From: Candidatus Saccharibacteria bacterium UBA669
GTDB taxonomy: Bacteria > Patescibacteriota > Saccharimonadia > Saccharimonadales > Saccharimonadaceae
Direction: 5' to 3'
Assembly (NCBI GenBank): GCA_002299795.1
Contig: DBNP01000005.1
Span: 1 to 47,715, forward strand
Length of the DNA: 47,715 nucleotides
Part shown: piece after piece, positions 11,332 through 41,006 of the stretch
Layout of the letters: the number at the start of each line of letters is the position of its first letter
How positions within the stretch are numbered: position 1 is the first letter of the stretch
The notes under the pieces: generated by a model
Told to the model about the DNA's origin: nothing
Seen by the model: the letters and a program-made list of their open reading frames with translations, nothing else
Database searches by the model: none
Position numbers and translations under genes: made by a program

Positions 11332-11434
11332 AAGCACTAGTATAGCATATCTGTTAGGCTTGACGAAATGAAGCAATAGGAGTCTAATATATTGTAGAGG
11401 GTAACGACCGAATCACGAGTTTGGATAGGAGCTG

Positions 11435-11737
11435 ATGACAGGTGAGCTACTCATGACTCAGCGTGCTCGACGTACACGGGTTACGAGACCTGTTGTGAAC
11501 CAAGCGCCTGGCTATAGCCGCGCCCGGTTCACCATCGAGAAGGCCTACGATGCGCTAGCCCTTGCGCCGTGGCGCGGAGTGGATCGACGGCGGTTCTATG
11601 CCGCACTGCGCAAAGCGCGCCTGGCCGACCAAGGCCATGAGCACGAGTACGGCTACGGCTCAGACCCGTTTCTGGGCGACCTGCTGTCGGACCTGGCGTA
11701 CGAAAACGTTCGCATGTGGCTTCGCGCCGCGCCCTAA
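11435..11737 (+). CDS. hypothetical GC-rich cassette gene (alternative start 11453)
   Basis: TTGACG promoter at about 11360, SD AGGAG, own terminator. Confidence 0.65.
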   Translation: MTGELLMTQRARRTRVTRPVVNQAPGYSRARFTIEKAYDALALAPWRGVDRRRFYAALRKARLADQGHEHEYGYGSDPFLGDLLSDLAYENVRMWLRAAP

Positions 11738-11744
11738 CACCACC

Positions 11745-11774
11745 AGCCTCCTACCAAGGAGGCTTTTTCAATTG
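11745..11774 (+). terminator. intrinsic terminator
   Basis: AGCCTCCT-ACCA-AGGAGGCT followed by TTTTCAATTG. Confidence 0.85.
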
Positions 11775-11775
11775 G

Positions 11776-12390
11776 CTACAGTGTGCGACGGCCTTCGAGC
11801 GCATGGCTCAGTGTGATCTGGTCGGCATACTCAAGGTCGACACCAACTGGTATGCCGCGTGCAAGTCGTGTCAGCTTGGTCGTCAGCTTGGCCTGCTCAA
11901 TCTGACGCTGAATAAAGAGCGCGGTTGACTCGCCCTCAACGCTCGCATTGGTGGCAATAATAACCTCCGTCACTTCATCAGACCGTATACGCGCAATGAG
12001 CTCCGGGATATGGAGCTGTTCTGGGCCGACACCATCGATGGGGCTGATAGCGCCACCAAGCACGTGGTAAGTACCCGAGTATTGGCCGGTGCGTTCGAGC
12101 GCTACGATATCAAGCGGCTCTTCGACGACGGCGATCAGCTGCTTGTTGCGTGTGTTGTCGCTGTAAAGCGGAGACACGTCCATATCGGGATCGATAAGCG
12201 CGAATGTGACTGGGCAGACATGCACACCCTGGTGCAGGCTGGCAATCGCCTGGGCCAGCCCGCTCGCGGTTCGCTCCTCAGCACGCAGCAAGTAATACGC
12301 ATAGCGCTCGGCGGTACGCGCTCCAACGCCAGGTAGCCGACCAAGCTCGTCAATAACAGCAAGCAAAGCTTTAGGAAGTAATTGATTCAT
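11776..12390 (-). CDS. recR: recombination mediator RecR
   Basis: LPGVG.RTAER, VVEEP.D, YHVLGGAISPIDG, EGESTA, LARGIPVG..LEYAD. Confidence 0.97.
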   Translation of the reverse strand: MNQLLPKALLAVIDELGRLPGVGARTAERYAYYLLRAEERTASGLAQAIASLHQGVHVCPVTFALIDPDMDVSPLYSDNTRNKQLIAVVEEPLDIVALERTGQYSGTYHVLGGAISPIDGVGPEQLHIPELIARIRSDEVTEVIIATNASVEGESTALFIQRQIEQAKLTTKLTRLARGIPVGVDLEYADQITLSHALEGRRTL

Positions 12391-12410
12391 GCAGTGAGAG
12401 AGGCTACGGG

Positions 12411-12701
12411 CTAGAAGCCGAGTTTGCCGAGTCCGCCCATGAGAGGCTTCATTTTTTCTGCAGCGATTTCCTGAGCCTTTGCCATGCCGTCGCGGATAGC
12501 GATTTCAAGCCAGTGCTCGAGCTCGTGAATATCCTCAAGGTCGACATATTGAGGGTCAATTTTTATACTCTTTACTTTGAGCTCACCAGTTATCTGCACG
12601 ACGACTGCACCGTCCCCCGCCTCAACTTCAACGATTTCGTTGGCGAGCGCTTTTTGGGCTTTTCGTAGGTCGTTTAGCATTTTCATTTGATCAAGTGCCA
12701 T
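12411..12701 (-). CDS. ybaB: YbaB/EbfC nucleoid-associated protein
   Basis: Size, EAGDGAV.V..TG....SIKIDP motif, position upstream of recR. Confidence 0.93.
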   Translation of the reverse strand: MALDQMKMLNDLRKAQKALANEIVEVEAGDGAVVVQITGELKVKSIKIDPQYVDLEDIHELEHWLEIAIRDGMAKAQEIAAEKMKPLMGGLGKLGF

Positions 12702-12739
12702 TACACTATTCCTCCGTCATTACTACTCGTCATTATACG

Positions 12740-14200
12740 CTATGTTGCCGGTGTTTTATAGATATAAAAGCGATCACTATCGTTTGACATACGATTGGTA
12801 ATGATTTGTGTGACCTCACCAGCTGGTTTCGATGAATGATAAAAATCGTGGCTCACAATGGTTAACTGCTTGCCGGGGCTATACGTCGTTGTGACAGTAA
12901 ACCGTGTATCGTAGTAGGCCATCATGGCATAAAACGGTAGTTCTTTCGGAGTGACAACGAGTAGTGTAGTCTTGGCGCTTGGCTGGTTTTTCTCAAATAT
13001 TTGTTGAAGCTGGCGCGTGTCGGTGCTGTAGTGCGAGAGAACCTGCCCGCTGTACAGGTAGTTGCCGGTAAACCTCACGACGCCCGAATACACAATACCG
13101 AGCACTATGGCCGAGAGTGGCAAGAGTCCGGCGATGCGCGCGTAGGGGTTGCGAGGGAAAAGCCGATACCAGTCGGTGATGAGCGTGGCGATACCAAGCG
13201 CAATCATCAGGCAGGCCAGCGGGAACAGGTTGTAGAGACGCTCTGGGTTGAGCAGCACGAGCGGTGCCATGACAAGTCCAAGCATCAGGGTGATATAGCT
13301 ACGCGCCGTGTATTTGTAGGTGATGAGTTTATATACTCCGACGGCGATGAGCAGGAAGAGGCCGAGCGAGTATGCTGGCCGCATAACGTAGCTTGTCGGC
13401 TCTGCGGCAAATCCAAATAGGTTGAGCACGATTTCAGTTAGGTTTTTCATGAGATGAACTTCGCCGGTAGGAAGGCCGAGTAACGTGAGTAGCACTTTGC
13501 TATCGATGGTTGTGGCGTAAATAAGAGGCGTGAGTGATACGAGCGCTAGGCCAATGCCAATCCATAAGCGCGGGCGCGAAAAGCGGAGGATTGTATAGCG
13601 GATATGCGGATGAAAAAATGTGGTTGTTAGCACAGCGATAACCAAATAGATACCAAGAGGAGTATAGACCGCAGTCGCCATCAGCACGCCAGTAAGAACT
13701 TTCCATAGTGTACCGAATGCCTTGTTGCGCGTCACGTAGGTGGCGGCAAATAGCAGCCAGATCATGATGAAACTAAAGGCAATGTGCGAAGTACCATCCT
13801 GCAGCAGGAACAGGAACTGGCTTGAAGTTACTGCGGTGATGGTGGCAATAACCGCGACATTACGTCGAAACCAAGTGCGCACGAGTAGGAAGATGCCAAT
13901 TGTCGTGAGTACGCCTAGTATGACCGATGGAAGCTTGATACCAAGTATCGTCACACCAAATACTGTCATAGTGGCACGCTGCAGAATATGATACGGCAAG
14001 TCAATGACCATGCGCGGTTCAAGCGCTTCGACTGACAGTGCGCCACTTTGTAGAGCAGCGTCAATCTCTCCCTGCCTTAGCGCACCGGGAACATGAAAGC
14101 TAACTAGGTAAAATATTGCGCTTACAGAAGCAATTAAAAAGACGTATCCAATGATATACCGCCAACGGTAGAGTGCATAATCAGTGACCTGCTTTAGCAT
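12740..14200 (-). CDS. GT-C fold membrane glycosyltransferase (ArnT/PMT family 39-like)
   Basis: Multiple TM helices with E in first loop, then LPYH and IKLPSVILG pattern. Confidence 0.7.
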   Translation of the reverse strand: MLKQVTDYALYRWRYIIGYVFLIASVSAIFYLVSFHVPGALRQGEIDAALQSGALSVEALEPRMVIDLPYHILQRATMTVFGVTILGIKLPSVILGVLTTIGIFLLVRTWFRRNVAVIATITAVTSSQFLFLLQDGTSHIAFSFIMIWLLFAATYVTRNKAFGTLWKVLTGVLMATAVYTPLGIYLVIAVLTTTFFHPHIRYTILRFSRPRLWIGIGLALVSLTPLIYATTIDSKVLLTLLGLPTGEVHLMKNLTEIVLNLFGFAAEPTSYVMRPAYSLGLFLLIAVGVYKLITYKYTARSYITLMLGLVMAPLVLLNPERLYNLFPLACLMIALGIATLITDWYRLFPRNPYARIAGLLPLSAIVLGIVYSGVVRFTGNYLYSGQVLSHYSTDTRQLQQIFEKNQPSAKTTLLVVTPKELPFYAMMAYYDTRFTVTTTYSPGKQLTIVSHDFYHSSKPAGEVTQIITNRMSNDSDRFYIYKTPAT

Positions 14201-14253
14201 AACTAGTAGATATTATACCATGCCGCTATCAAGCTCATGCCTATTATGATGCT

Positions 14254-16982: not shown

Positions 16983-17079
16983 TGCCCTCATTATATCGTT
17001 TTGCGCCGACAAATACTGTTGTCGAATTGGCTAAACAGTAAGCATTTTATATCACTAAGTTGCAGTATATGTAACTTTA

Positions 17080-17580
17080 ATGTATGATACGAACAATATG
17101 TTTGAGTCACGAAAAGGTAAAAGAAAATTTGATGCATGCGCACTAAAACGTGTCGAGTATATTGAACAAGTAGGGGTCATTAGACAAGGAGTGAGAATAA
17201 GTATTCCGGTAAGCTCATTGCAAGTTGGAGAAGATGCCAATTCTAGCAAAGGCGTGAAACCCATACTTACCTGTCCCAAGCTCGACGAGCTTGGTCTATC
17301 TATTTATTCTGATAGGGAGCGAGAGCCCTATGGATATGGGGGAAAAACCAATGCACTAGAGAATATTCGTGCAATTGCTGGCAAAACAGTCTGTGCAAGC
17401 TGTGAACTTGCCGGTATGACGGCGACTCAGGTTGCCGATAGGCGGCGCGAAGTGGCTGAGGCAGAGGCACGCGCGCTGATTGCAGAAGCGAACCTGAACG
17501 CGCTTCAATCCAAAGTTGCTGCTGGTGATACCATCATCCAAGATTTACCTCCAGATGGTGGCTTGTATCCGCAGGTGTAG
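17080..17580 (+). CDS. hypothetical protein, Cys motifs plus coiled coil
   Basis: Long ORF filling the gap; CPK and CASC motifs; start uncertain. Confidence 0.65.
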   Translation: MYDTNNMFESRKGKRKFDACALKRVEYIEQVGVIRQGVRISIPVSSLQVGEDANSSKGVKPILTCPKLDELGLSIYSDREREPYGYGGKTNALENIRAIAGKTVCASCELAGMTATQVADRRREVAEAEARALIAEANLNALQSKVAAGDTIIQDLPPDGGLYPQV

Positions 17581-17601
17581 CTTGTGCTTGCAACGCGAAC
17601 C

Positions 17602-18304: not shown

Positions 18305-18345
18305 ACAATGAAATGCCGCGCAGACTGAGCCTGCGCGGTGGGTGG
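18305..18345 (-). terminator. hairpin terminator of 18346 cassette
   Basis: CCGCGCAG-GCTCAGT-CTGCGCGG then CATTTCATT. Confidence 0.7.
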
Positions 18346-18633
18346 TCAGAGTAGGGATTCCTCCGACAGGTTTGACCTGTTCTTGTACAGGTAGTCCTGT
18401 CCGGCCAGGATGACAAGGCTGAAGGCAAAGATGGCCAGTGAGCCAAGCGTCATGCGTGTTCCACGCTCATCGCCAAACACGGTGAGCCCGAGGCCGATGG
18501 CGGTGCCAAATGCGCTCGCCGTACCGATCAGCGTGAGCGGAACAGTAACGCAGATGAACAGCACGGCCATCAGCGTGTCGTTTAGCGCACCGATCAGCCA
18601 GCGTACAGCACGCCGCAAGCGCTGAATGACCAT
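18346..18633 (-). CDS. small membrane protein (cassette gene 2)
   Basis: Hydrophobic segments; ATG lies 1 nt after the stop of the upstream micro-ORF. Confidence 0.7.
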   Translation of the reverse strand: MVIQRLRRAVRWLIGALNDTLMAVLFICVTVPLTLIGTASAFGTAIGLGLTVFGDERGTRMTLGSLAIFAFSLVILAGQDYLYKNRSNLSEESLL

Positions 18634-18634
18634 A

Positions 18635-18802
18635 TCAGGGCACCTTCCAGTTGGCAATCAGCAGGTACGCACCGGAAAAGACCATGGTGGCACCGGTGTA
18701 GAACGCTATGGTCGCCCAGCGCCCACCATGCACGGCACTGGCAAATGCGCCCGCAGCCAGAAGGTATCCACCAGCAACGAGGATAAGAATGAACAGTGCC
18801 AT
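18635..18802 (-). CDS. 55-aa two-TM membrane protein, not in ORF track
   Basis: Hand translation MALFILILVAGGYLLAAGAFASAVHGGRWATIAFYTGATMVFSGAYLLIANWKVP*; SD GAGGAG; promoter TTGCAT..TATAAA at 18848-18875. Confidence 0.75.
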   Translation of the reverse strand: MALFILILVAGGYLLAAGAFASAVHGGRWATIAFYTGATMVFSGAYLLIANWKVP

Positions 18803-18911
18803 GACGACTCCTCTACTCGATACTCGAAGAACAACCCTTAAGCACTATTTATACCACAAAAAGACACACATGCAAATACAGCAGGTGTGCCAAATGTGTG
18901 ATGCGACGTGG

Positions 18912-19598: not shown

Positions 19599-19653
19599 CA
19601 ATTGAAACGACCCGGCATCCCAGTCCCGCAGGGGGGAAAGGATGCCGGGTCGT
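19599..19653 (-). terminator. long hairpin terminator
   Basis: 14-bp stem ACGACCCGGCATCC/GGATGCCGGGTCGT then TTCAATTG. Confidence 0.85.
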
Positions 19654-19661
19654 GGTGGCCG

Positions 19662-19727
19662 TCAGCGAGGGCGGTCCTCGTCAGGCCAGCCGGTTTCCCG
19701 GTCTTCGGCGTCGTTGTACTGCGTCAT
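19662..19727 (-). CDS. 21-aa acidic micro-ORF, not in ORF track
   Basis: MTQYNDAEDRETGWPDEDRPR*, preceded by GAGGAGGTG SD and followed directly by the terminator. Confidence 0.6.
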   Translation of the reverse strand: MTQYNDAEDRETGWPDEDRPR

Positions 19728-19764
19728 ACTATCACCTCCTCAGTGTATGGTGATCGCGTAGTCG

Positions 19765-20310
19765 TCAGCGCCACTTACGGCGCAGGAGCCGCGGGTCCTC
19801 CGGCGCCATGAGATGGCGCGGCAGGATGGTGCGCGGCTTGGCGGTTGGCTGCGGCTGTCGGCTGGCCGCATTTTTGGTGCGGACCGGGCTGACCGAGCGC
19901 TCCTGTCGGGACCGCTCAAGACCGAGGCCGAGAAGTTCGTAGCCGGACCGCACATACCGCATGTTCGAGATTTCTCCCAGGCCGGGGTAGTTGGCATCGA
20001 TGGCACTGGTCCCGCTGTCGTCGGCGCCCCACGTAGCGGCGTCATCGCGACGACGCTTGAACGCAGCGGTATGGCCCCGCTCGATGGACTCGTCGATCTT
20101 CGCATATCGTTCACTGGCACGGTTGCGCCGCGCGCGCGTCATCGGCTGACGCGGCCGGAAGGTCGGCCACTCGAAGGTCTCAGTCTCCCGCACGGGGAGC
20201 CCAAACCGGTCTTTGGCAATCGGCGTCAGGCCGAGTGCCTTGATCAGACGCTGGTCCTTGGTGCGGACAACACCGATGCCCGGTGCGTACTCGTAGGTGG
20301 TGCGAGCCAC
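19765..20310 (-). CDS. Arg-rich hypothetical cassette gene
   Basis: GTG start with AAAGGAG SD and a perfect promoter upstream. Confidence 0.7.
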   Translation of the reverse strand: MARTTYEYAPGIGVVRTKDQRLIKALGLTPIAKDRFGLPVRETETFEWPTFRPRQPMTRARRNRASERYAKIDESIERGHTAAFKRRRDDAATWGADDSGTSAIDANYPGLGEISNMRYVRSGYELLGLGLERSRQERSVSPVRTKNAASRQPQPTAKPRTILPRHLMAPEDPRLLRRKWR

Positions 20311-20350
20311 TTGGTTTTCTCCTTTATTTGGAGGTGGACTTTATAATTTC

Positions 20351-20379
20351 ATTATAGCACAATCAATATAAAATGTCAA
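20351..20379 (-). promoter_or_regulatory. sigma70 promoter
   Basis: TTGACA-17nt-TATAAT with TG extension. Confidence 0.9.
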
Positions 20380-21742: not shown

Positions 21743-22840
21743 ATGAGAGAACACCTCCACAGCGAACCGGTAGTGCCGGAGATTTCATATGAGGAAAACG
21801 CGCGGCGTGCCCTCGATGGGTTGATTGTGTGTGGGTGGTCGCCAAAAGGCTATGATGACGTGTCAGTTGAGGACATTCACCCAACACCGCTTGATTCCGA
21901 GCGTGTGCAGCTGGCCGCCTCTGAGCACGACCAGCCTGGCCACAACCGTCCACTAGGGTACTATGAAGCGGCGATGATTGAGCTTGGTGCGCGCGCCCAC
22001 GAGGCGTGCGAGCGTGCTGGTCTGCCTGAGGGCTGGGAGCTCAATGTGATTGATGAGATTGTTGCCCAAAACACCATCCGCGTCAGTCACAACAGCGATG
22101 CTTATGCGCGGCTGCGCCAGGCGCTCGAGCAGCGCCCAGCGAGTGTCGACCTGCTTCAGTCGATTCAGCGTGCTCGCGGTGGCATGGCGAGTACTGCCGA
22201 AATGGTGAGTCTGCTGGCTGCATATCCCGAGATGGTGAGCATTGAAACACACAAAATCACCAAGCCATTTGATAGTGAATTGTTCGATGAGGTTGACGCG
22301 CGGATTCGCTACGAGCTTGCGGCGCTGCAGCACATGGCACTGCCGGGTGGTGAGATTATTATTGCTCTTAGCAACATGGAGGGTGAGCCGTTCGGGAGCT
22401 GGACGTTTCTTGATACCAACGGCACACTGGTGGAAAAGCAGGTGGTGGCAGAAATCAATGTGCCTGGCAATCGCTTCGAACTAATCCGCAAAATGACGAC
22501 CATGATCATGCCTGGCGAGCTACAGCTGACTGGCGTGGCGCCGCGGTTCCGGCTGGTAGACTTGCCAGATGGCAACGAGCTATTCATCAACGCGCAGCCA
22601 CTCAGCCTCACCTACTACATGAGAACGTACGATTACCGGCAGCGACTGGCATATGCCGAGCAGGCGCCAGTGCCTCATCCGCTTGTCGGCGCACGTGCGA
22701 TCAAGGCGGCGCTAAAAGACTATGACCTTGGGCTCGTCGGCGATGCAAACGCAGCAGTACTTGCGCAGATTCCCGATCAATCAGCACGTGATATGGTGTA
22801 TGAATCGATTGTGGCTGCGCTGCAGCGAAGTGGCCCGTAG
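21743..22840 (+). CDS. hypothetical protein
   Basis: 365-aa ORF with a TATAAT box just upstream; no recognisable motif. Confidence 0.75.
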   Translation: MREHLHSEPVVPEISYEENARRALDGLIVCGWSPKGYDDVSVEDIHPTPLDSERVQLAASEHDQPGHNRPLGYYEAAMIELGARAHEACERAGLPEGWELNVIDEIVAQNTIRVSHNSDAYARLRQALEQRPASVDLLQSIQRARGGMASTAEMVSLLAAYPEMVSIETHKITKPFDSELFDEVDARIRYELAALQHMALPGGEIIIALSNMEGEPFGSWTFLDTNGTLVEKQVVAEINVPGNRFELIRKMTTMIMPGELQLTGVAPRFRLVDLPDGNELFINAQPLSLTYYMRTYDYRQRLAYAEQAPVPHPLVGARAIKAALKDYDLGLVGDANAAVLAQIPDQSARDMVYESIVAALQRSGP

Positions 22841-25959: not shown

Positions 25960-26925
25960 ATGATAACAAAGGAACCCGTGCCTACGTTTTTCGTGCCACC
26001 TAATGAGATAGATGCTGATCTAATGGCTGTGCTTGATGATGAGCAGCCAAAGAACTTTATTTTGCCAGAAGGGACAGACTACCTAGCGACGTATGAAGAA
26101 CCGACGGGTATTCCTCCTGAAGAGTGCTATGTCGATGTGGATGATGATGAGAGACAGCGATTACTCAGAAGGGGTCGGTACCGTAACGACAGCTATTATT
26201 TCAATGATAGTCTCAATAGTCGTATGACAGTTGGTCCCGAGTGCCAGGAGCTATACCCATGGCTAATGACTGATCATTACGCTTATGATTGGCTACTAGC
26301 CTCAGTTGAGCTACGCGAAATGATCGCTTCATCAACGCTTGCGGTGCTTGATGATGCCGAGAAGTTTACGACTATCGTTGGTGAAGACACCAGTGGGCGC
26401 ATAGCCGCCCTAATCGTTGCCAAAGCGATGAATATCGTCCGTGAGCTAAAGGGTCTTTCGCCTGCGCGACGATTGTTTGTGTCCGGTCGGATCGATGAAT
26501 CGCAAGCTCCAAACTTTCGAGCGCATGACGAGGACGACAGAGCCTTGCTCGTAACTGAATACGTGTGCACAGGGGACTCTGTCAATGGTGCGGCTGATGC
26601 ATTGCGCCAGGCTGGATTTATGGCGCCTAGCGTACTGACACTTGATCGACATGGCGACGAGAGCGATATTTATGCTGACAAAGTGTATATGGGGGCACGC
26701 AACACCTACACCGGGCGCGCAGATGACCATCTGTATGGACTCTCCGTCGCTCTCAAGGGTGTCACAAAGGAATCTGGTGATGCGCATTCGTCGCGCGCTA
26801 GTTTGAGCCCCGGTCAACGACAGCATCTGATCAAGCTCCGTGCGGACATCGACCACTTCGCGCATGAACTCGTGGGCATATGGCTCATACGCCAGCGAGA
26901 GCACGAAAACGAAGTATCCGCATAG
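25960..26925 (+). CDS. hypothetical protein with type I phosphoribosyltransferase-like domain
   Basis: IVGEDTSGRIAA and ALLVTEYVCTGDSV resemble PRTase loops (DD replaced by TE); acidic N-terminus. Confidence 0.65.
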   Translation: MITKEPVPTFFVPPNEIDADLMAVLDDEQPKNFILPEGTDYLATYEEPTGIPPEECYVDVDDDERQRLLRRGRYRNDSYYFNDSLNSRMTVGPECQELYPWLMTDHYAYDWLLASVELREMIASSTLAVLDDAEKFTTIVGEDTSGRIAALIVAKAMNIVRELKGLSPARRLFVSGRIDESQAPNFRAHDEDDRALLVTEYVCTGDSVNGAADALRQAGFMAPSVLTLDRHGDESDIYADKVYMGARNTYTGRADDHLYGLSVALKGVTKESGDAHSSRASLSPGQRQHLIKLRADIDHFAHELVGIWLIRQREHENEVSA

Positions 26926-26973
26926 TATTTCCCTACTTTTATCAGTATAAGGTCTGTCCAATTTGCAATTAAT

Positions 26974-27001
26974 AGCAACACCCGATAGTACGGGTGTTGC
27001 T
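26974..27001. terminator. hairpin, probable original rplA terminator
   Basis: 11-bp stem AGCAACACCCG-ATAGTA-CGGGTGTTGCT. Confidence 0.75.
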
Positions 27002-27022
27002 CCTTTGTCGGTGGACGGTATC

Positions 27023-27057
27023 TAGTTCACTTGGTTTTGAGCTCGATACCAGGGCCC
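27023..27057 (-). repeat. degenerate duplicate of rplA 3' end (direct repeat with 29619-29654)
   Basis: tagttcacttggtttt-gagctcgataccagggccc versus tagttcacttggttttcgagcttgatgccagggccc: 33 of 36 positions identical. Confidence 0.92.
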
Positions 27058-27065
27058 GATGACGG

Positions 27066-27488
27066 TTACCGCCGGGGGTTTGGTGATGATCTTCTGATAT
27101 AGTCGAGGATAGTGTGAAGTGTCGGGTTGTTTTCACTTGTCGGCTCGAGGCCGAACCGCTCAGTCGGGGAGTTGCTTTCTTGGTCATCATAATTCTCTAC
27201 GACGACGGCATATTCGCCTGCTTCGTCTACTGTGTAGGTCACTCGAGCTTCACCCTCGCCGAAGTCAACCTGCACAAGGACAGCCCTTGGTCTCGCAGAG
27301 ATAATGTCGACACTGCGGTCGTGTAAAGTGTAGTGGCTGATAAATGGCTTATTGGGGTCGTGGGGCCTGTTGTAGGTGTTGCGGAACGTGTAGATTGCTT
27401 GCATAAGGTAGGCTAGCATCGTCTCGTAGGGCACTTCCTGTACGCCTGGTATGTATAGAATTTCGGTCGGTGGAATTCGTTCGCTCAT
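27066..27488 (-). CDS. hypothetical protein, translationally coupled to upstream 689-aa gene
   Basis: TAATG stop/start overlap at 27488. Confidence 0.75.
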   Translation of the reverse strand: MSERIPPTEILYIPGVQEVPYETMLAYLMQAIYTFRNTYNRPHDPNKPFISHYTLHDRSVDIISARPRAVLVQVDFGEGEARVTYTVDEAGEYAVVVENYDDQESNSPTERFGLEPTSENNPTLHTILDYIRRSSPNPRR

Positions 27489-29557
27489 TAGATTGCAACC
27501 CTTTCGTCGTGGGGTGTTCGTTTAACGCGAGGGCGACGCTTGATCCACCCACTTGATCCGCTGAGTTCGAGCTTTGTCACGTTTGACGTAGTAGGCTCCA
27601 TATCAAGCGGGTCACCCTTTCTCCTGCCAAAGAGGAGGATCCCTCGAGTGTCCTGGTATGGATCAAAATGCACGCTGGTAATATCATCGGTGCCTAGCAC
27701 TATCGTATTAGTGTCGGCTGATTCGGTAAGTGTGGCCTCAGCTACCGAGGGAGTCAATTCGGTACTTACGTCACTATAACATGATGCAAAGATGATTCGT
27801 TTTTTGCCGAAGGCAGACGGGCCGCCTACGTGTTTGGCGCCGCACATATATTCGCTGACGATGCGCCGAATCTGCGATTGGTCAATATTTAGCTTTGGAC
27901 GGTGGTCCCAGTAGACATCACTCACCCGTGCTGTGCTTTGTATAGTAAATCCGTCGAAACCTGTTCCAGCGGACATACGACTTGGGTTGCCATGCAATGA
28001 AAATACGAGATTGCAAAATTGAACGTTGCGTTTCTTGAGGAGAATGAGGGCACGATACAGGTCTGATGGTCGTGTCCATGGCACGATGACGCGCGAAGAG
28101 GTATCATTGGTTGGCCGGAGCAGATGTAGGGTGACTGCCATTGCTTCATTCGTACTACCGTATGAGTCAAATGGGATCACAGATACATCACTGGCCTGCA
28201 GTCGCTGTATCACCGTAGAGTCATCGTCGAGCAAGCCGAGCCAGGTAGCAACATCATTTTCCGTAAACATATCAATGGCTCCGATATCGATTGTTTTATG
28301 TAGTCGCTCTAGTGCATGTGCGCCGAATTTCTCGTGTAATATCACTAGTCTTCGCAAAGTGCCCGCGAAGCCTGCATTATATATGCCCTCGGGGGTGTAT
28401 TTCCTGGGTGTGAGTGAGTCGGCCATGCGGCACGAAAACCTCGTCGCAAAACCAGGTGTTTCGAACAGGTGCCTACACAGTTGATGCTGGACGCCTATGG
28501 CCGCAGCGTTATAGTTGATTGTTTGGTCTGGGTTACCGGTAGATGTTTCAAAGTTTGTTGGAGGAATTGCTCGAATCAGCAGCTCTGCGTACGAACCGGC
28601 ACTTTCGGCAAGTGCTTGTATTTCGGGATGCGACCGAGCTTCATCTCCCGTGAGGCCGCCAGGAAAGTATCCGTTGAGAGCGGTCAGGACCGAATCGCTG
28701 TTATCTTGTGTCCTGATGTCGTTTTGAGCGGCACAGGATAAGAGCAGTATTCCAAACTTCTCCCACACCGCCTTGTCACAGGTGTCTCGCACACCGGCCA
28801 GGAGTTGTTGACTAGTGATCGCTCCAAAGGCGTATCCCAGGTCGGGGCTGGATTCGGGTATCTCTGTAATGCGTTTGATGTATTCAGTAACCTCACGATC
28901 AGACATGAGCCCACCCATACTGTTGAGTCTTATACACCAGTCTTCGAGGTGTCGATCTTCTCCCCACTGGCTTTCCTGCTCTTCGGGCTTAGCTAAGCGG
29001 TCCATACTTTCAAACAATCCTGCTATCGTCTCAGTGCGCAGCTCGCGTTTTCGTGTATTTATGGCATTCTCAACACTCTGCGCTGGTGGCTCACCATCTG
29101 GGGTGTAAGTGACAAGCCCCTCTGCCCATGCTTTGTCTGCTGCCTTGCGCGCTAGGTTGGGGTGTCTGTATATGAATTCGTCTATCGCCTTGTGGCTGTC
29201 ATCGAGCACATAGCCATCACGGCGATCGAGAGCATACATAGCAAAAGCTGTTATGAGGGGCTGCTGCTCCTGGGTATCAGTATCGGGGTCTTGTTGAGAA
29301 GCTTGTGCCAGGCATTGCTCTTGGGCGCGTCGCCATACTTCTTCATGTGAATCACCCGGCTGGTATGCCTGTGCGCATGCCTCAGCAATACTGTACATAA
29401 TGCTGTGTGTTGCATGGTGCGTCTCGTGGTCATAGAGCGACCCATCGGAATCATGGATATGCTGCATGCGGTTGCCTATCGCATCGACAACAATTGAGTC
29501 TTCAATCTTATCAAAACTCTGTTTGACGGGAGTGGTTAGCACGCGCTCACTTGCCAT
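27488..29557 (-). CDS. large acidic protein with C-terminal caspase/CHAT-like (clan CD) His-Cys motifs
   Basis: NLVFSLHGNP and RIIFASCYS; leaderless start after TACAAT. Confidence 0.7.
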   Translation of the reverse strand: MASERVLTTPVKQSFDKIEDSIVVDAIGNRMQHIHDSDGSLYDHETHHATHSIMYSIAEACAQAYQPGDSHEEVWRRAQEQCLAQASQQDPDTDTQEQQPLITAFAMYALDRRDGYVLDDSHKAIDEFIYRHPNLARKAADKAWAEGLVTYTPDGEPPAQSVENAINTRKRELRTETIAGLFESMDRLAKPEEQESQWGEDRHLEDWCIRLNSMGGLMSDREVTEYIKRITEIPESSPDLGYAFGAITSQQLLAGVRDTCDKAVWEKFGILLLSCAAQNDIRTQDNSDSVLTALNGYFPGGLTGDEARSHPEIQALAESAGSYAELLIRAIPPTNFETSTGNPDQTINYNAAAIGVQHQLCRHLFETPGFATRFSCRMADSLTPRKYTPEGIYNAGFAGTLRRLVILHEKFGAHALERLHKTIDIGAIDMFTENDVATWLGLLDDDSTVIQRLQASDVSVIPFDSYGSTNEAMAVTLHLLRPTNDTSSRVIVPWTRPSDLYRALILLKKRNVQFCNLVFSLHGNPSRMSAGTGFDGFTIQSTARVSDVYWDHRPKLNIDQSQIRRIVSEYMCGAKHVGGPSAFGKKRIIFASCYSDVSTELTPSVAEATLTESADTNTIVLGTDDITSVHFDPYQDTRGILLFGRRKGDPLDMEPTTSNVTKLELSGSSGWIKRRPRVKRTPHDERVAI

Positions 29558-30728: not shown

Positions 30729-30752
30729 AAAAATGCCCCTCCGAAGAGGGGC
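30729..30752 (-). terminator. intrinsic terminator
   Basis: GCCCCTC-TTCG-GAGGGGC-ATTTTT. Confidence 0.85.
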
Positions 30753-30761
30753 TGAAGCGAC

Positions 30762-31610
30762 CTATGAGGCCGGCTCCTCGAGGCTATAGATCTTGCACAT
30801 CGTGTCGAGCGCAGCGCGAACGTTGTCGAGTATGCGTTCGAGCAGCTGCTGGCGGTACTCGTCCGGCCGGTCGTAGATAACGAGCAGCGGTATCTGTGTT
30901 TGCAGGGCTTGATCGGCAAGTTCCTCGAGCACTTGTTTGTTGCGCCGGGTCTTGTAGCCGCTGTCTTCAAACCAGCCAAGGCGGGCGGCTTCGTCAACCG
31001 ACTTCGCGCGTTCGATCATCTTGCTGATCCAGGTATCGATGCTCGTGATGAGCTTGATTTGCTCGCGCGTCGCGCTGTGATTCAGCGGATCAGTCAGTAG
31101 CATGCTAATCGCGTGCTGGTGGCTGTCAAGACCGCGGGCATCCCAGAAGTGCGGGTGTGCAATCAGTGCGTTGTAGTTGTAGTAAATACGGTCAAACAAC
31201 TCGGGCGCACCGCAGAGCGCCAGCTGCTCGCGCAGTGTGGCCAGCAGTTCGGCTGGGCTATTTCCCCAAACAATCTTGTCGTCGGGTGTGTTGCTGAAGT
31301 ACTTGATCAGCTGGCTATTCAGACTCACGTCTACGAAGTTCTGCGGAAGATGGATCTCGAATGGCTCGCCGAGCTTCCAGGCGGTTTGATAGTGCACCGC
31401 GTCCGTGAGGCCATCCCACTGATCGAACGGCTCGTTGCCGGGATACGTGACGGTTATCCGGCGCGCACCCTGCGCGCCAACCTTTGCTGATGCAAACCGA
31501 ACAAACACCACGCCGTCTTTCTTCCAGACGGCAACCCAGCCAACGCGCTGTCCAGCCAGGTCAGCTGGCCATTCACGCACGATATCGATTTGAGCAACCG
31601 GAGCCACCAT
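30762..31610 (-). CDS. hypothetical cassette gene
   Basis: SD AAGAGGT, TGATATAAT promoter at about 31668, own terminator. Confidence 0.78.
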   Translation of the reverse strand: MVAPVAQIDIVREWPADLAGQRVGWVAVWKKDGVVFVRFASAKVGAQGARRITVTYPGNEPFDQWDGLTDAVHYQTAWKLGEPFEIHLPQNFVDVSLNSQLIKYFSNTPDDKIVWGNSPAELLATLREQLALCGAPELFDRIYYNYNALIAHPHFWDARGLDSHQHAISMLLTDPLNHSATREQIKLITSIDTWISKMIERAKSVDEAARLGWFEDSGYKTRRNKQVLEELADQALQTQIPLLVIYDRPDEYRQQLLERILDNVRAALDTMCKIYSLEEPAS

Positions 31611-31713
31611 TGCGTCAACCTCTTTTCGTTTCAAGGAGCACTTCACGAACGTGAAGCTTTGTAGATATTATATCATAGATCTGTAGAAAAACAACATTAA
31701 CCAATCCCATGCA

Positions 31714-31756
31714 CAATTGAAAATGCCCAGTTCTGCGGTGATGCAGAACTGGGCAA
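31714..31756 (-). terminator. long hairpin terminator
   Basis: 13-bp stem TGCCCAGTTCTGC/GCAGAACTGGGCA then TTTTCAATTG. Confidence 0.85.
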
Positions 31757-31767
31757 TGGTGGATGCG

Positions 31768-32055
31768 CTACGGCCGGTCGGGGCCGGCTTTGCGTACCGA
31801 CCTGGGCATGTGTCGCAGCTGCTTGAGCGCACGCTTCCAGGCCGCAGCCTGGTTGGGCGCACTTGCCGTGCGGCCGGCGAGCTCGTCGGCAAGCCCCTGA
31901 TAGTCATCAGGATCGCCGCCGAGTTGGGCCATCACCCCGGCATCGTGACGCTGGGCCAATCGCCTGCGCGAGTGAGCTCGCATCAGGATCGCTGTGCCGA
32001 GGAGCACTGCCCCACCGACGGCTGCGCCGCCGATCAGTTTGCTTCGCCGTTGCAT
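31768..32055 (-). CDS. small N-terminal-TM protein, cassette gene
   Basis: SD GAAGGGA, TATAAT upstream, GC-rich, own terminator. Confidence 0.7.
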   Translation of the reverse strand: MQRRSKLIGGAAVGGAVLLGTAILMRAHSRRRLAQRHDAGVMAQLGGDPDDYQGLADELAGRTASAPNQAAAWKRALKQLRHMPRSVRKAGPDRP

Positions 32056-32132
32056 ACTGAAGTTCCCTTCGTTGTCGTTGAGCGAGTAAGATAATTATAC
32101 TATAATTCACGATATTTTACCATAGCCATACG

Positions 32133-32179: not shown

Positions 32180-32419
32180 CTAGCTGACGCTAAGTAGCGT
32201 CCAGCCGGTGCCGCTCTGTCGCAAGCAGAAGCTCTGGCTGCCATCACTGATGGTGACGGTGCTCCAGATATTCTCACCACGACGGATGGTAGCGCGGATG
32301 CCACGGTCAACAAAGTTGTACGTGCGCCCGGCCCATTCCATACGCTTTGGAATTGGCTGCATATCGCGGCCAAACCCTACGGCGGTGACAGAAACAGGAC
32401 TGTAAATGTGATTGTTCAT
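32180..32419 (-). CDS. small beta-rich hypothetical protein
   Basis: SD AGGAG; P..MEW.GRTY pattern; own terminator. Confidence 0.75.
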   Translation of the reverse strand: MNNHIYSPVSVTAVGFGRDMQPIPKRMEWAGRTYNFVDRGIRATIRRGENIWSTVTISDGSQSFCLRQSGTGWTLLSVS

Positions 32420-32701: not shown

Positions 32702-33166
32702 ATGGAGCGGTACTATGACAATACAATGAATACTGTTGGTGGATATTTGGCCCCCGAGTGGTGCGACTGCGGCCCAGTGCGTCGTCTTATTGAGCATGCT
32801 GATGGCCTTGAGGTGGCAAAAAAGGCCGAGACTGACCTGGCGTTTAACCCGGCGACATTAGACCTTATAGTGGAACAGCTATGTGATGCCAGCGGCATCA
32901 GTGAGAGTGACGCCCGTGCCGTGGCGACGGAAAAACACGGTGATTTTTTGAAACTTGTGGCTGAGCAGCTCAATGCATTTGACGATGAGATAGCGACGAG
33001 TCAGTCGGTGTGCGAGAAGTTGACCGCAGAGTGCCCCGGGAGAATGCGCGTCCAGCAAACGGATGCGCTCGGACGCCGCGTGGTGCTCTATGTTTGCTCG
33101 TCACCACTTATTGATGCGCTCGATGGGAGCGGTGTGGAGCCTGTCGTCGTGGAGCGTATCAACTAG
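32702..33166 (+). CDS. hypothetical protein with Cys motifs
   Basis: CDC, C.....ECPG and VCSSP motifs; start uncertain. Confidence 0.7.
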   Translation: MERYYDNTMNTVGGYLAPEWCDCGPVRRLIEHADGLEVAKKAETDLAFNPATLDLIVEQLCDASGISESDARAVATEKHGDFLKLVAEQLNAFDDEIATSQSVCEKLTAECPGRMRVQQTDALGRRVVLYVCSSPLIDALDGSGVEPVVVERIN

Positions 33167-34083: not shown

Positions 34084-34125
34084 AATGAAAACCCCCGCTC
34101 CGCGGTGCGGAACGGGGTGTGTGGG
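34084..34125 (-). terminator. hairpin terminator
   Basis: CCCCGTTCCGC-ACC-GCGGAGCGGGG then TTTTCATTTT. Confidence 0.8.
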
Positions 34126-34782
34126 TCAGGGCGTCGCGTCCTGTGGGCCCAGTGGGCTACGCTTCAGGTACGGTTCGTCCTGGTCCATTTGCCGGAAGAG
34201 CAGCCTGTCGATCTCTTCGTCAGACAGCGTGGGACCAGTACCTGCCAGGTCCCTCACTAAGGCCTTCAGTCCGGCTGTCAATGTGGAACGACGGCTGTAG
34301 AGCACGCGTGCGTTCTCGACGCCGATTTCGACGGCACTGACCATGCCGAGGGTTGTCACGACCGTGCCAACCTGTGAAGCAGGGTGCTTACGCACCAGCG
34401 ACGTTCCCGTCCTGAGCTGGCGAGCGCCAAGCCCAACCGAAATGAGGCTACCAATGACATTGCCCACCACGGCCGAGGTATCAAGATTCTTTGGGCCTGC
34501 TTCCGCTGCAACCGACGGATCCCGCCGCTGCAAGAGCCAGTAGGTGTTTGCCGCCATGGCGCCAAGGTTCAGTGTGGCCATAGCCGCATTACTGAATCGT
34601 CGACGTGGCGTCAGCGGCCGACTGTCTTTGACGCAGCACACGTCGTAGCCGCGCAATGCGCTTACGCTGCGTACGCCGATTGCGATCGCCGAAAATGTGA
34701 TACTTGTCACGAGGCGTCGGGTGCTGGTGCGCTTCCCCGATGCCGCCATCGAGTCTCTGAAGGTTTGAGCGTTGCTGGACAC
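34126..34782 (-). CDS. hypothetical membrane protein, cassette gene
   Basis: GTG start, SD GAAAGGGG, promoter TTGATG-17-TATAGT at 34831-34859, several hydrophobic segments. Confidence 0.72.
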   Translation of the reverse strand: MSSNAQTFRDSMAASGKRTSTRRLVTSITFSAIAIGVRSVSALRGYDVCCVKDSRPLTPRRRFSNAAMATLNLGAMAANTYWLLQRRDPSVAAEAGPKNLDTSAVVGNVIGSLISVGLGARQLRTGTSLVRKHPASQVGTVVTTLGMVSAVEIGVENARVLYSRRSTLTAGLKALVRDLAGTGPTLSDEEIDRLLFRQMDQDEPYLKRSPLGPQDATP

Positions 34783-34875
34783 AGGTGCCCCTTTCGATTG
34801 TAGGTGCTCGCGTGGTTACGCGTTTACAGTACTATATCACAAAAATAGATAAGCATCAAGTATGTAACACTGCAA

Positions 34876-34916
34876 ATTAAAAATCCCCCGCGCACCCAGT
34901 GTGGGTGCGCGGGGGT
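34876..34916 (-). terminator. long hairpin terminator
   Basis: 14-bp stem CCCCCGCGCACCCA/TGGGTGCGCGGGGG then ATTTTTAATT. Confidence 0.87.
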
Positions 34917-34922
34917 ATGTGC

Positions 34923-35207
34923 TCACTCGTCGCGGAATACCACGATGGGCTCGTCCACTGCAAAGACTCGCGCCACGTACGCGCGCAGGCGCGCCAAGAA
35001 CGTACTCGAGGTGTCGTTCGCGCGTTGAGCCATCAGCTCGGCGAATTCCCTACGTGCGTCTTCAAGCAACACGCTCAGCCGGCTGAAGAGTTCCTCGACA
35101 GCGGCCTTCGCCGCGTCGATCTGCTCGTTCGTGCTGAGTGGGTCAGACACGAGTGTGTCGAGCTCGCTCATTGCCTGCTGAAGCTTCTTGAGAGTTGGCT
35201 TGGACAT
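34923..35207 (-). CDS. small coiled-coil hypothetical, cassette gene
   Basis: SD GGAGG; promoter TTGACG-18-TACACT at 35257-35286. Confidence 0.72.
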   Translation of the reverse strand: MSKPTLKKLQQAMSELDTLVSDPLSTNEQIDAAKAAVEELFSRLSVLLEDARREFAELMAQRANDTSSTFLARLRAYVARVFAVDEPIVVFRDE

Positions 35208-35314
35208 GGAGTCCTCCATGGGGTACGTGCCGCAAGAATATGCGACGAGTCTGTGAAGTGTAGCATAGAGTTTTCAGTATCGTCAATCATAGGCGGTATG
35301 TGGCGCCATATAGC

Positions 35315-35342
35315 AAAACACCCCGGCAATGACCGAGGTGTT
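35315..35342 (-). terminator. rplK transcript terminator
   Basis: AACACCTCGGTCATTGCCGGGGTGTTTT. Confidence 0.75.
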
Positions 35343-35360
35343 CTATGGGGTAGCTAGCTG

Positions 35361-36007: not shown

Positions 36008-36127
36008 AAAATAGTTTCCTTTTGATTACTAAATATAATGTGAAGCAATATTTAGTGCGTAACAGCGGTGTATTATAGCCTAGACCGCGCTGAAATGCAA
36101 GCAGTGAGGAGGATGCACCGTCGGACT

Positions 36128-37195: not shown

Positions 37196-37225
37196 AGTGT
37201 CTCGATTATACTCCACTTTTCCCTA

Positions 37226-37254
37226 TTGACAAAATCAACAAAGTGTGCTAGTAT
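37226..37254 (+). promoter_or_regulatory. sigma70 promoter driving a long non-coding leader
   Basis: TTGACA-17-TAGTAT with TG extension. Confidence 0.8.
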
Positions 37255-37511
37255 GGAATTAGCGTTATATCTTGCACACAAACACGTGTAGTTTAGTAAG
37301 GGGAAGAACATCGACGTTCTCTAGCGAATGCCATAACAAAAATCATAGGCACGGGAGAATCGTATTAAACATTGTTTTTGATTGTTTTACCCCTGAATCT
37401 ACAGGATGTAATGCAAGCTATACCAGGCGCCCCGTAGTCACAGTCGGGGGCTCGTACCACGCGAGGTATGGCGCTCGAGCGATACAATTTAATGGAAAGG
37501 ACAATTCGTAC

Positions 37512-37550
37512 ATGACAATACTTATGTTTGGCACAGTGGGCGTGGCGTAG
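37512..37550 (+). CDS. putative 12-aa uORF
   Basis: MTILMFGTVGVA* behind GAAAGGA. Confidence 0.35.
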   Translation: MTILMFGTVGVA

Positions 37551-37750
37551 TCCCTGTTTGTAAGGTACTTTCTATCTTGCAAGCATCTACCGCCTACCGT
37601 CACATCGGGCGATATCAAGATATTTTCAAGATTGATAGTAGCTTTAACTTACCGTGATCGATTGCAATCATCTCGGAACCCCGCGGATACTCGCTGGTTC
37701 TGTTTGACGTGCAGTTGACCACTCCAACAACAAAAACAAAGGAGTACACT

Positions 37751-39553: not shown

Positions 39554-39567
39554 GAGATCAGCGCAAA

Positions 39568-39600
39568 AGCCCCGCATCGACATGATGCGGGGTGTTTTAT
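39568..39600 (+). terminator. intrinsic terminator
   Basis: CCCCGCATC-GACAT-GATGCGGGG-TGTTTT. Confidence 0.8.
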
Positions 39601-39605
39601 GTTGC

Positions 39606-39662
39606 AAAATAAAAGCGGACAGCACAGGGCGCAGATTGTATCTGCATCCCTGTGCCGCCCGT
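39606..39662 (-). terminator. long imperfect hairpin terminator
   Basis: CGGGCGGCACAGGGATGCAGAT..ATCTGCGCCCTGTGCTGTCCG then CTTTTATTTT. Confidence 0.78.
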
Positions 39663-39666
39663 GTGG

Positions 39667-40188
39667 TCAGCAGCGGCTGACGCCGCCAGTCGTGCCGTAG
39701 TTGTAGAAGTTCAGGCACACACGGTCGGTGTAGGTGAGGCCTGTCGTAATCCTCACGCCTTTAGCTGTTCCACTAACGGCATATCCATTGCTCGTGCCTC
39801 CACGGATGATGTTGTACGCGCTCAACTTGATGTAGCTGGTGTTCGCCCATGCGTACGTAGCAGGGACGTCCACCCACCCGTCAGTGACAACCATGTACCC
39901 ATAGCTATCACGGGTAATGGTGATGTACGCACTTGGTTTAGCGTTGGTCGCTAGCCCTGTGAAGGGCAGGTACGCGACGTCCAGGAATTGGCACACGTTG
40001 GGTGAGTTGCCAACTCGCTTCGTGACTCCATACCCCAACGCGATTGAGTCGCATGCGTAGTAGGTCAGGTACGTCGGTGCCGCCACTGCTTGCGCAGGGC
40101 TCGCCGTCAGCACACCGATTGCCACCATGGTGGCAGTAATGAAGCTGGCGAACCAGCCCCAGTGTCGCGACTTTTTCGGAGCGTTCAT
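39667..40188 (-). CDS. secreted hypothetical protein, cassette gene
   Basis: Signal peptide ending LTASPAQA; four Cys; SD GAAAGG; promoter TTGCAT-17-TACATT. Confidence 0.78.
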   Translation of the reverse strand: MNAPKKSRHWGWFASFITATMVAIGVLTASPAQAVAAPTYLTYYACDSIALGYGVTKRVGNSPNVCQFLDVAYLPFTGLATNAKPSAYITITRDSYGYMVVTDGWVDVPATYAWANTSYIKLSAYNIIRGGTSNGYAVSGTAKGVRITTGLTYTDRVCLNFYNYGTTGGVSRC

Positions 40189-40284
40189 TGTGGTGCCTTT
40201 CCCTCGTCGTAAGCCGCGGGGTTCCGAAGCTTATTGTGATAATGTAAACGATAAGGCTGTACTATGCAAGCATAGGTGTATTAG

Positions 40285-40333
40285 AAATGAAAATAGGTGG
40301 TATTTGTGCAGGGTGACTGCACAAATACCACCT
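40285..40333 (-). terminator. long hairpin terminator
   Basis: 16-bp stem AGGTGGTATTTGTGCA/TGCACAAATACCACCT then ATTTTCATTT. Confidence 0.87.
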
Positions 40334-40340
40334 GGTTGGC

Positions 40341-40937
40341 TCAGAGCGCCCCGCCGTCCTTGCGCTCGGCCTGGCGCTGACGGTATGCCTGCTGTGCCGA
40401 GGCAAAGCCACTGGCAATGCCTGCCCATCGAGCCAAGGCTCCATCGAGCGCTCGCTCAGTCTGGTCGGCGGCCGTGGCCCGCAGCCGTTCGAGAGCATTC
40501 GTCAGGCTGTCGATGTCGTCGCTGAACACATCCTGTGAGGCTCCGGCGGCATCGGTCGCCTTGTTGGCGGCAACTTCACCAAGGCTTCCAAGCTGCTCGC
40601 TCAATTCCATCATGCGTCCACCAGCCGCATCGAGAAAGCGCTCAAAAGCGGCGCTGGCGCTGCCATACAGCCGCTCGAATGTCTCGTCCCAGTCGGTGGG
40701 TTCGGCGAGGGGATCGACGGTGCCATACAGTGTCACGAGTAGTTCCTCTAAGGATGGCTTCGCCGGCTCGAGCATCACGAGCGCATCCAGCTCGGCTTGC
40801 ATCTCTTGCGCGCGCCAGTTGAAGACCAGCCGCGTCGTGCTATCATCTGGCGCCTCATTGCTCAGGCGTTGCGCCTCGGCGATACCAGCTTTCAGCATCT
40901 CAACTCGAATGCTGCTTGGGTTCATGGCAGATGCCAT
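40341..40937 (-). CDS. Ala/Glu-rich helical hypothetical, cassette gene
   Basis: SD GAAAGGA; promoter TTGACA-16-TATAGT at 40974-41001. Confidence 0.75.
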   Translation of the reverse strand: MASAMNPSSIRVEMLKAGIAEAQRLSNEAPDDSTTRLVFNWRAQEMQAELDALVMLEPAKPSLEELLVTLYGTVDPLAEPTDWDETFERLYGSASAAFERFLDAAGGRMMELSEQLGSLGEVAANKATDAAGASQDVFSDDIDSLTNALERLRATAADQTERALDGALARWAGIASGFASAQQAYRQRQAERKDGGAL

Positions 40938-41006
40938 CGGTCTTCCTTTCGTCGGACGAATAGAACATTGGTTACTATAGCACATACATGATATGTGTCA
41001 ACCAAT

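Follow-up and report, generated by a model that had tools for sequence, protein, structure and literature searches.

A dispersed class of GC-rich, self-contained gene units in Candidatus Saccharimonas whose transcripts look selected, possibly for use in the actinobacterial host

Integron cassettes are promoterless open reading frames (ORFs) arrayed beside intI, with attC after the ORF; phage early and auxiliary metabolic genes are small, fast-evolving orphans with strong promoters, strong Shine-Dalgarno (SD) sequences and host-like codons; and the T-DNA genes of Agrobacterium are parasite-encoded, carry host-suited expression signals and are delivered by a type IV secretion system (T4SS). Phage morons are independent promoter-ORF-terminator modules of odd GC content between conserved genes (PMC3594210; Juhala/Hendrix), and the putative T4SS effectors of Nanosynbacter lyticus TM7x are proposed parasite products that would alter an actinobacterial host (10.1101/2022.03.25.485537, PMC12592800). 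Here we describe a class of gene units, nine of which lie in a 47,715-nucleotide (nt) stretch of Candidatus Saccharibacteria bacterium UBA669 (contig DBNP01000005.1; hereafter the window), each consisting of a promoter, a leader with an SD, a GC-rich ORF and a hairpin. Like integron cassettes, the units are unrelated ORFs with a palindromic 3' element, but they have their own promoters, lack the attC core in 9/9 cases, are dispersed and are accompanied by no extra integrase. They share the features of phage early genes listed above, and cargo such as ThyA/ThyX, PyrE/PyrF and an RpoA C-terminal-domain (CTD) mimic, but their carrier is a cellular epibiont that has ribosomes of its own, and we know of no route by which its messages reach the host. 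In contrast to T-DNA, no border repeats or relaxase were seen, the promoters look native and the host is bacterial. The TM7x effectors, in the available parts of those sources, come from six genes of the T4SS locus itself and are presumed to be secreted in protein form, whereas the units are dispersed and defined by their transcripts. Unlike phage morons, the units belong to a bacterial chromosome, of whose genes they form about 5%; no donor was found for them, and their odd GC content is often kept and covers the transcript, not the promoter. The units are thus a real, widespread gene class, moron-like in layout yet not a member of the morons; judged from titles and abstract openings, the class was not found described in the literature.

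The first-pass annotation of the window had reported this layout for nine units, and direct reading of the sequence found it in 9/9 (Table 1; units are named by an ORF coordinate). A sigma70-like promoter lay 36-56 nt 5' of the first start in all nine, each had an SD-like tract and a GC-richer ORF, and the hairpin lay 5-12 nt past the last stop; 2/9 were two-gene units. GC content at third codon positions (GC3) was 0.65-0.79 in the unit ORFs, against a genome mean of 0.54 (standard deviation 0.08). Seven C/A spacers after the stop, the lack of a spacer at 30762, and the tails TTTCAATTG and TTTCATT after three units each were present as described. The strong hairpins and near-consensus promoters held for most units; the hairpins of 11435 and 30762 were modest (-13 kcal) and 31768 had no clear -35 box. 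The idea of a shared 3' tag fell, as TTTCAATTG occurs in only 6 copies in the 692-kb genome, 3 of them at units; what the units share is not a fixed word but a terminator style with a short, interrupted U-tract. The unit neighbourhoods contain nusG, rplK, rplA, rplJL, dnaX and recR and do not qualify as phage or prophage locations.

Genome-wide, the class was defined by GC3 at least 0.13 over the genome median together with a hairpin of -17 kcal or below; gene calls were home-made, and part of the start positions are wrong. The class comprised 37/779 genes in G000, the genome holding the window (71% complete; the window is its contig C36), and 53/1047 genes in its complete sister genome G013, about 5% of genes. 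By their rplJ loci, the nearest named relatives are Ca. Saccharimonas and other Saccharibacteria. In a pooled sample of G000, G013 and 300 kb of G020 (132 high-GC3 genes versus 1890 others), a hairpin of -17 kcal or below followed 76% of the high-GC3 genes and 15% of the others, a promoter score of at least 13 preceded 46% and 8%, and an SD was found in 63% and 28%, respectively. Among hairpin-bearing genes only, the C fraction in the 7 nt after the stop was 0.43 in high-GC3 genes compared to 0.27 in others. The tail TTCA[T/A]T followed 18/99 high-GC3 terminators (TTCAATT in 3/99) and 1/231 low-GC3 terminators; it was also found at 0/88 low-GC3 U-tract terminators, a group chosen as T-rich and so biased against the motif. 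By these counts, core-gene terminators do not match the units in the frequency of spacer and tail. To escape circularity, a second pick used promoter, SD and hairpin only and ignored GC3. Its orphans, meaning genes with no match in four partial distant gene sets, had GC3 of at least 0.63 in 12/14 cases (G000) and at least 0.66 in 22/24 cases (G013), compared to the genome median for orphans outside the pick. The results demonstrated that the architecture predicts the codon dialect. The class is present in Ca. Saccharimonas and some other Saccharimonadales and is not conserved throughout the phylum; comparable genes were also seen in G003, G020, G022, oral Nanosynbacter loci and G027, a genome of another family in which class genes reach GC3 0.98 (genome median 0.42). 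In G013 the class genes cluster toward the terminus half, and 36/48 lie on the lagging strand, compared to 33% of other genes. Pfam matched 17/126 class proteins and PHROGs 5/110; for the window units, no Pfam family exceeded the cut-off, and PHROGs and Rfam likewise gave none.

The composition of the units changes where transcription is predicted to start. Across 75 units, GC content rose from 0.21-0.26 over the promoter (about 23%) to 0.51-0.56 from about 10 nt past the -10 box, with an excess of C over G in the initial part of the leader, whereas native leaders stay near 0.4 GC. Terminator stems had 15 pairs in units compared to 8 elsewhere, and the T at -15 of the extended -10 was present in 93% of units compared to 48%. 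Folding of the ORF relative to synonymous shuffles (fold z) was significantly stronger in units than in controls (-1.8 versus -0.4; 60 genes each, P = 4e-7) and stronger on the sense than on the antisense strand (P = 0.004); 30 genes of mycobacteriophage Myrna had a fold z of -0.9, weaker than that of the units. Codon choice shifted off the preferences of the parasite's ribosomal-protein genes (CCG 0.42 versus 0.11, AAG 0.83 versus 0.49) in the direction of Myrna, so that usage differs from both core and ribosomal-protein genes. The composition switch, the longer stems, the ORF folding and the codon shift therefore make the transcript look like the object of selection. The SD extension AGGTG outnumbered AGGTA 16:5 in units compared to 72:94 elsewhere, a shift confounded with GC; given the actinobacterial type of 16S tail, an AGGTG-type extension leans toward the host. 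The SD itself was rejected as a host mark because G013 and G020 have a 16S tail with the usual CCTCC core, in keeping with the annotation's caveat that the SD alone is not diagnostic.

GC3 appears to have been kept by selection, according to a model run on picked gene pairs. Of the fourfold differences between core genes in close pairs, less than 3% were C-G changes. Decay from a GC content of 1 at fourfold sites (GC4) under the core-gene substitution spectrum would reach 0.53-0.62 once C-G differences are about 0.3. The lower GC4 of six orthologue pairs, chosen by hand from the top of a pair ranking, was 0.70-0.95, and 4/6 lay above the most lenient bound at P < 0.05 while 2 did not. The family in the rplL slot had GC3 of 0.79 in G000, 0.84 in G013, 0.79 in G012, 0.93 in G003 and 0.96 in G022; four aligned proteins were 21-26% identical to the window copy, and the G012 protein combines motifs of both subgroups. 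The promoter type and the MART start of the window copy recur in G013, G003, G022 and G012. Five Saccharimonas-like genomes (L101:5271-6065, L103, L112, L116, L118) share a thyA clade that, at saturated divergence, has GC3 of 0.77-0.79 and a strong hairpin; ThyX-like genes occupy similar slots in L109, L110, L251 and L258.

Lgt and LspA were each found in 0/61 genus genomes, with control searches positive; Lgt was likewise found in 0/201 order genomes over the cut-off, and TatC in 0/5. Lipobox proteins, in counts that depend on the pattern used, made up 3/68 units versus 3/936 other proteins in G013 and 4/140 versus 3/2392 in a larger set. One family kept its lipobox, unit layout and GC3 of 0.78-0.84 at 30-78% identity in three genomes. 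A second family, encoded within the core T4SS locus by a gene that has a consensus promoter and a hairpin to itself, had six syntenic orthologues 18-33% identical, in which the only invariant columns were the lipobox A-C and one Pro; its profile matched 1/150 further genomes of the order, at a locus of uncertain T4SS identity. This lipoprotein is twin-arginine-like in L187:1501-2373 (G013 857848) and L188:1462-2322 (G000 C11:2562). The LAxTG sorting signal was dropped as a host mark, as native low-GC3 proteins share it and sortases occur in 5/5 genomes.

VirB4 was present in G000 and in 44/44 other published order genomes (45/45). In the available part of PMC10633639, the T4SS of Saccharibacteria is without a recognisable relaxase or coupling protein, and reporters under tuf or rpsJ control were not detected in host cells; any export must therefore be selective, and the absent signal speaks against transfer of DNA in bulk or of RNA without selection. 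The cargo with a named family (RpoA-CTD mimic, CdsA, CDP-alcohol phosphatidyltransferase, L,D-transpeptidase, ThyA/ThyX) suits a host. A stand-alone RpoA C-terminal-domain protein lies in a full unit at L118:13546-14001 (GC3 0.82) and is a candidate transcription decoy. Separately, a second conjugation-like cluster lies at G013 532851-542465 (L064:12851-20000, L065:1-2465), with a counterpart on G000 C38; it contains a pilin-like gene, membrane proteins and an NlpC/P60-M23 hydrolase, the only member named by NCBIfam, and has strong SDs and GC3 of 0.56-0.75.

Cultivated Saccharibacteria grow on Actinobacteria, as described in PMC10633639. The reading that we favour, at a probability of roughly 40%, is that the units' mRNAs are transcribed and stabilised in the parasite and translated in its actinobacterial host. 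The units would be lineage-born, fast-evolving parasite genes behind AT-rich promoters, from which the parasite polymerase likely produces short, stable mRNAs in the host's dialect with a long 3' hairpin. The relaxase-less T4SS is the most plausible route by which these mRNAs may reach the host, where host ribosomes, Sec and Lgt would turn them into membrane, secreted, regulatory and nucleotide-supply proteins serving the parasite. The unit products would thus be host-takeover proteins, the host an actinobacterium, and the turnover and recombination of units would fit a host-parasite arms race. The more complete version, a dispersed arsenal taking up about 5% of the genome whose folded mRNAs are exported by the T4SS and then host-translated, secreted and lipidated, we consider doubtful. 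The first-pass annotation had proposed parasite promoters in front of host-like transcripts. The observation behind it is real, and the interpretation is partly supported: the GC switch near the predicted transcription start, the often maintained GC3 and the lipoproteins without Lgt and LspA support the promoter-transcript contrast, while transfer and host translation stay conjectural.

Several results weigh against translation in the host. We know of no secretion system that moves mRNA between bacteria. Excess folding is also found in ribosomal-protein genes (z -1.4). Lipoboxes without Lgt and LspA are a hint of host translation, not proof, because the best-conserved lipoprotein family, that of the T4SS locus, has ordinary GC3 (0.42-0.52), 0/9 window units have a lipobox and the counts are pattern-dependent; moreover, the enrichment in G000 was not significant (1/43 versus 6/671), the same family was found in 7/81 genus genomes, partly as N-terminal matches, and some parasite lipidation route would account for it. 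GC3 was not always kept: the G020 homologue of 30762 (27% identity) had GC3 of only 0.49, C1_24571 had 0.74 versus 0.57, and the saturated window pairs 34126 and 34923 had GC4 of 0.59-0.68, near the decay floor. Some units look import-like, with 30% identity to Myrna gp223 in one case and GC3 of 0.98 in a BMP-family gene. Finally, G018 has the class in weak form, and a 200-kb sample from each of two VirB4-positive genomes, G030 and G033, yielded no example of it.

It is less probable, in our judgement, that the units are moron-like imports, single genes acquired by natural competence from high-GC hosts or their phages, which were placed behind a native promoter, now serve the parasite itself and are slowly decaying toward the base composition of the genome. 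An own promoter, an own terminator and odd GC are hallmarks of morons (PMC3594210), several of the highest-GC3 units of G000 have no G013 match, a few units outside the window have actinobacterial-world relatives at 30-35%, and the near-floor GC4 of the saturated window pairs would suit decay. The GC4 values over the decay bound in 4/6 picked pairs and the high GC3 of the rplL-slot family in five genomes speak against decay. The unit promoters are more AT-rich than native promoters, whereas a promoter brought in by block import from such a high-GC source should be richer in GC. Nor did three window proteins searched in large protein libraries yield a close donor; Units 4, 6, 8 and 9 are among those without one, and a few units elsewhere have distant relatives. 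The 30762 protein had only 3 homologues, the one with an organism label being from Saccharibacteria, no relative on viral contigs and no Atlas match, and its predicted structure (pLDDT 65) had no fold match in PDB or BFVD; a ThyX-like identity was rejected. The 39667 protein matched itself alone among 5.8 billion proteins; its Atlas look-alikes (Actinomycetota clusters, 0.79-0.80) were not counted because shuffled proteins reach that score a third of the time. For 40341 the search returned, besides itself, one 79% relative and one weak match, and for 34126 the donor search was blank, with no phage match. In G027, pyrE (GC3 0.76) and pyrF (GC3 0.82; L310:12372-14038) use the same dialect. The pyrF is of Patescibacteria type: among the 120 matches listed, the 9 organism-labelled homologues were 8 Patescibacteria and 1 'bacterium', and the six closest were unlabelled. 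A GC-rich Patescibacteria donor of this pyrF is possible.

The route of entry was also considered. The suggestion of cassette capture came out weak: the attC core pattern RYYYAAC...GTTRRRY was found in 0/9 units, no extra integrase was seen, 8/9 slots hold homologues in G013 and no close donor was found. One tyrosine recombinase was present in 4/5 genomes and two in G020, none of them in the window, where the annotation had likewise seen no recombinase. RVT_1 reverse transcriptases occurred in 3/5 genomes (G013 927616; G020 174344 and 819915; G022 C5 and C17) and not in the 71% complete G000, and no source gene for retro-capture was found. The attC and integrase routes were rejected. A clean pair of filled and empty sites, which favours import, was found in oral Nanosynbacter-type loci, where the unit sits immediately after a native terminator and the insertion shows no visible duplication. 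There, a hypervariable sortase-type surface-protein unit of 430-530 amino acids (aa; GC3 0.6-0.7) lies upstream of rplJ, the site being filled in L174:7521-9719, L132, L138, L177 and L263 and empty in L259 and L128. No such pair was found among close Saccharimonas loci, and 19/19 matches were oral Nanosynbacter-type loci.

As probable as moron-like import, in our estimate, is that the mRNAs are stored or long-lived messages for the parasite itself, for example in a free swarmer stage, with high GC3 a by-product of selection on folding and the proteins surface-acting or secreted. The folding excess on the sense strand rises with GC3 (rho -0.48), leader hairpins occur in many units, the stems are long as noted above, the SDs are compatible with the parasite's own 16S tail, and five window units are represented in RNA libraries, all of which would suit storage. 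Lipoboxes without Lgt and LspA and the AGGTG shift would stay unexplained, however; 30762, 40341 and 18635 combine high GC3 with no folding excess, and leader folding did not differ significantly from that of native leaders (P = 0.08).

We consider it quite unlikely that the units enter the host as DNA and are transcribed there by the host RNA polymerase, in the manner of phage early genes or T-DNA. A foreign polymerase could well use promoters with a near-consensus -35 and an extended -10, a lagging-strand bias is seen in the units (22/26 versus 96/185), and the T4SS derives from monoderm conjugation systems according to the available part of 10.1101/2025.01.22.634366. Set against this are the lacking relaxase and coupling protein and the chromosomal reporters unseen in the host in the available part of PMC10633639, the scattering of the units among core genes and the absence of a visible shared border repeat.

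Comparison of G000 with G013 points to exchange between species. BLAST orthologues were found for 7/9 units, with a diverged family member at the rplL slot; the 39667 slot of G013 holds no unit, and in more distant genomes the same or nearby slots are occupied by other units. Core genes of the two genomes were near saturation (median synonymous divergence, pS, 0.72), whereas several units had pS of 0.1-0.45, with long identical tracts extending into flanking core DNA. The units may have been swapped by homologous recombination anchored in flanking core genes; natural competence, described for Saccharibacteria in PMC10633639, makes swapping possible without a recombinase. That GC-biased gene conversion at such often-recombining loci produced the dialect without selective meaning is most unlikely, for although the mosaic identity and low pS of units would suit it, other low-pS genes have ordinary GC3 (0.48-0.57), the GC content of the adjacent promoter spacers is near 0.23, and the leaders are enriched in C on the sense strand instead of in G and C alike.

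Coordinates and products of the nine window units are given in Table 1.

Table 1. The nine units of the window (TM, transmembrane segment; percentages are protein identities).
Unit	Span	Strand	Promoter	ORF(s)	Hairpin	Other elements	Product and GC3	Homologues
1	11360..11774	+	11360-11388	11435-11737	11745-11764	C/A spacer; tail TTTCAATTG	100 aa, 0.68	Same slot: G013 38-42%, G003 51%
2	18308..18875	-	18848-18875	18635-18802; 18346-18633	18316-18338	Tail TTTCATT	Small, hydrophobic: 55 aa, 0.65; 95 aa, 0.74	G013 80% and 86%
3, behind rplL	19599..20379	-	20351-20379 (consensus)	19765-20310; 19662-19730	19607-19653	Tail TTTCAATTG	Arg-rich, 181 aa, 0.79; 22 aa	
4, before rplA	30730..31694	-	31667-31694	30762-31610	30735-30752 (short)		282 aa, 0.71	
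5	31714..32123	-	32094-32123 (extended -10, weak -35)	31768-32055	31724-31755	Tail TTTCAATTG	95 aa, one predicted TM, 0.74	G013 82% (GC3 0.72), G020 37% (GC3 0.86)
6	34085..34859	-	34831-34859	34126-34782	34093-34117	Tail TTTCATT	218 aa, 0.69	G013 58%
7, behind rplK operon	34875..35286	-	35257-35286	34923-35207	34885-34915	Leader hairpin	94 aa, helical, 0.78	G013 57%
8	39605..40269	-	40241-40269	39667-40188	39616-39661 (-37 kcal)	Predicted 5' hairpin	173 aa, Sec-type signal peptide, 0.72	
9, behind nusG	40287..41001	-	40974-41001	40341-40937	40295-40333	Tail TTTCATT	198 aa, helical, 0.69	G013 73%

The ORF of Unit 1 had a fold z of -4.0, and in Unit 8 the value was -6.8 for the whole unit and -5.3 for the ORF alone. 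The Unit 2 orthologues in G013 share long identical DNA tracts with the window, and the identity of Unit 9 to its orthologue is mosaic. The second ORF of Unit 3, missed by ORF finders, has its own very strong SD between the 19765 gene and the hairpin. RNA evidence consisted of assembled contigs, from libraries of one study, which cannot rank genes; contigs matched 31768, 34126 (3 runs), 34923, 39667 (3 runs) and 40341 (2 runs). Among the matches listed, 12/16 exact pieces from three metatranscriptomes fell on units in the stretch that was used to find the runs, compared to 0/4 RNA pieces on the three units of an independent 19.9-kb stretch, and an expression ranking was dropped.

Other features were observed beside the units. 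A second set of orphans in the window (17080-17580, 21743-22840, 25960-29557, 32702-33166 and 42115-42951) has GC3 of 0.39-0.62 and no unit layout, often with a -10 box near the start and with no Pfam match. A conserved 79-aa gene at 32180-32419 (27 homologues) has an SD, a hairpin and GC3 of 0.66 (0.46-0.67 elsewhere) and is nearly identical to G013 at the DNA level (pS 0.09). The AT-rich intergenic region at 37250-37700, between the 36128 gene and an ABC transporter, contains inverted repeats without an Rfam match. In G013 a tRNA-Pro(CGG) lies between the orthologues of 34923 and 34126 (L021:16408-16485), and Rfam found no tRNA at the matching window position. In the G013 tRNA set (L186), aragorn found tRNA-Arg(GCG) and, at 489889, predicted one tRNA with the anticodon CTA; it detected no tRNA for Asn and none of the types Ala(CGC) and Val(CAC).

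The cargo of the essential, relaxase-less T4SS of Saccharibacteria and the control of the host are open questions in the available part of PMC10633639. The class described here gives a short list of candidate effectors recognisable from sequence alone, and since oral Nanosynbacter loci also hold units, strains open to genetics could serve for a sharp test. The tamer readings, too, would have to account for a codon dialect in 5% of the genome and for lipoboxes that are conserved although no Lgt was detected in the order. If host ribosomes read the messages, this would be mRNA delivery between bacteria, for which we know of no precedent, and if the arsenal exists as outlined, the grammar of the transcripts would become a genome-only predictor of effectors and of the GC content of the host.

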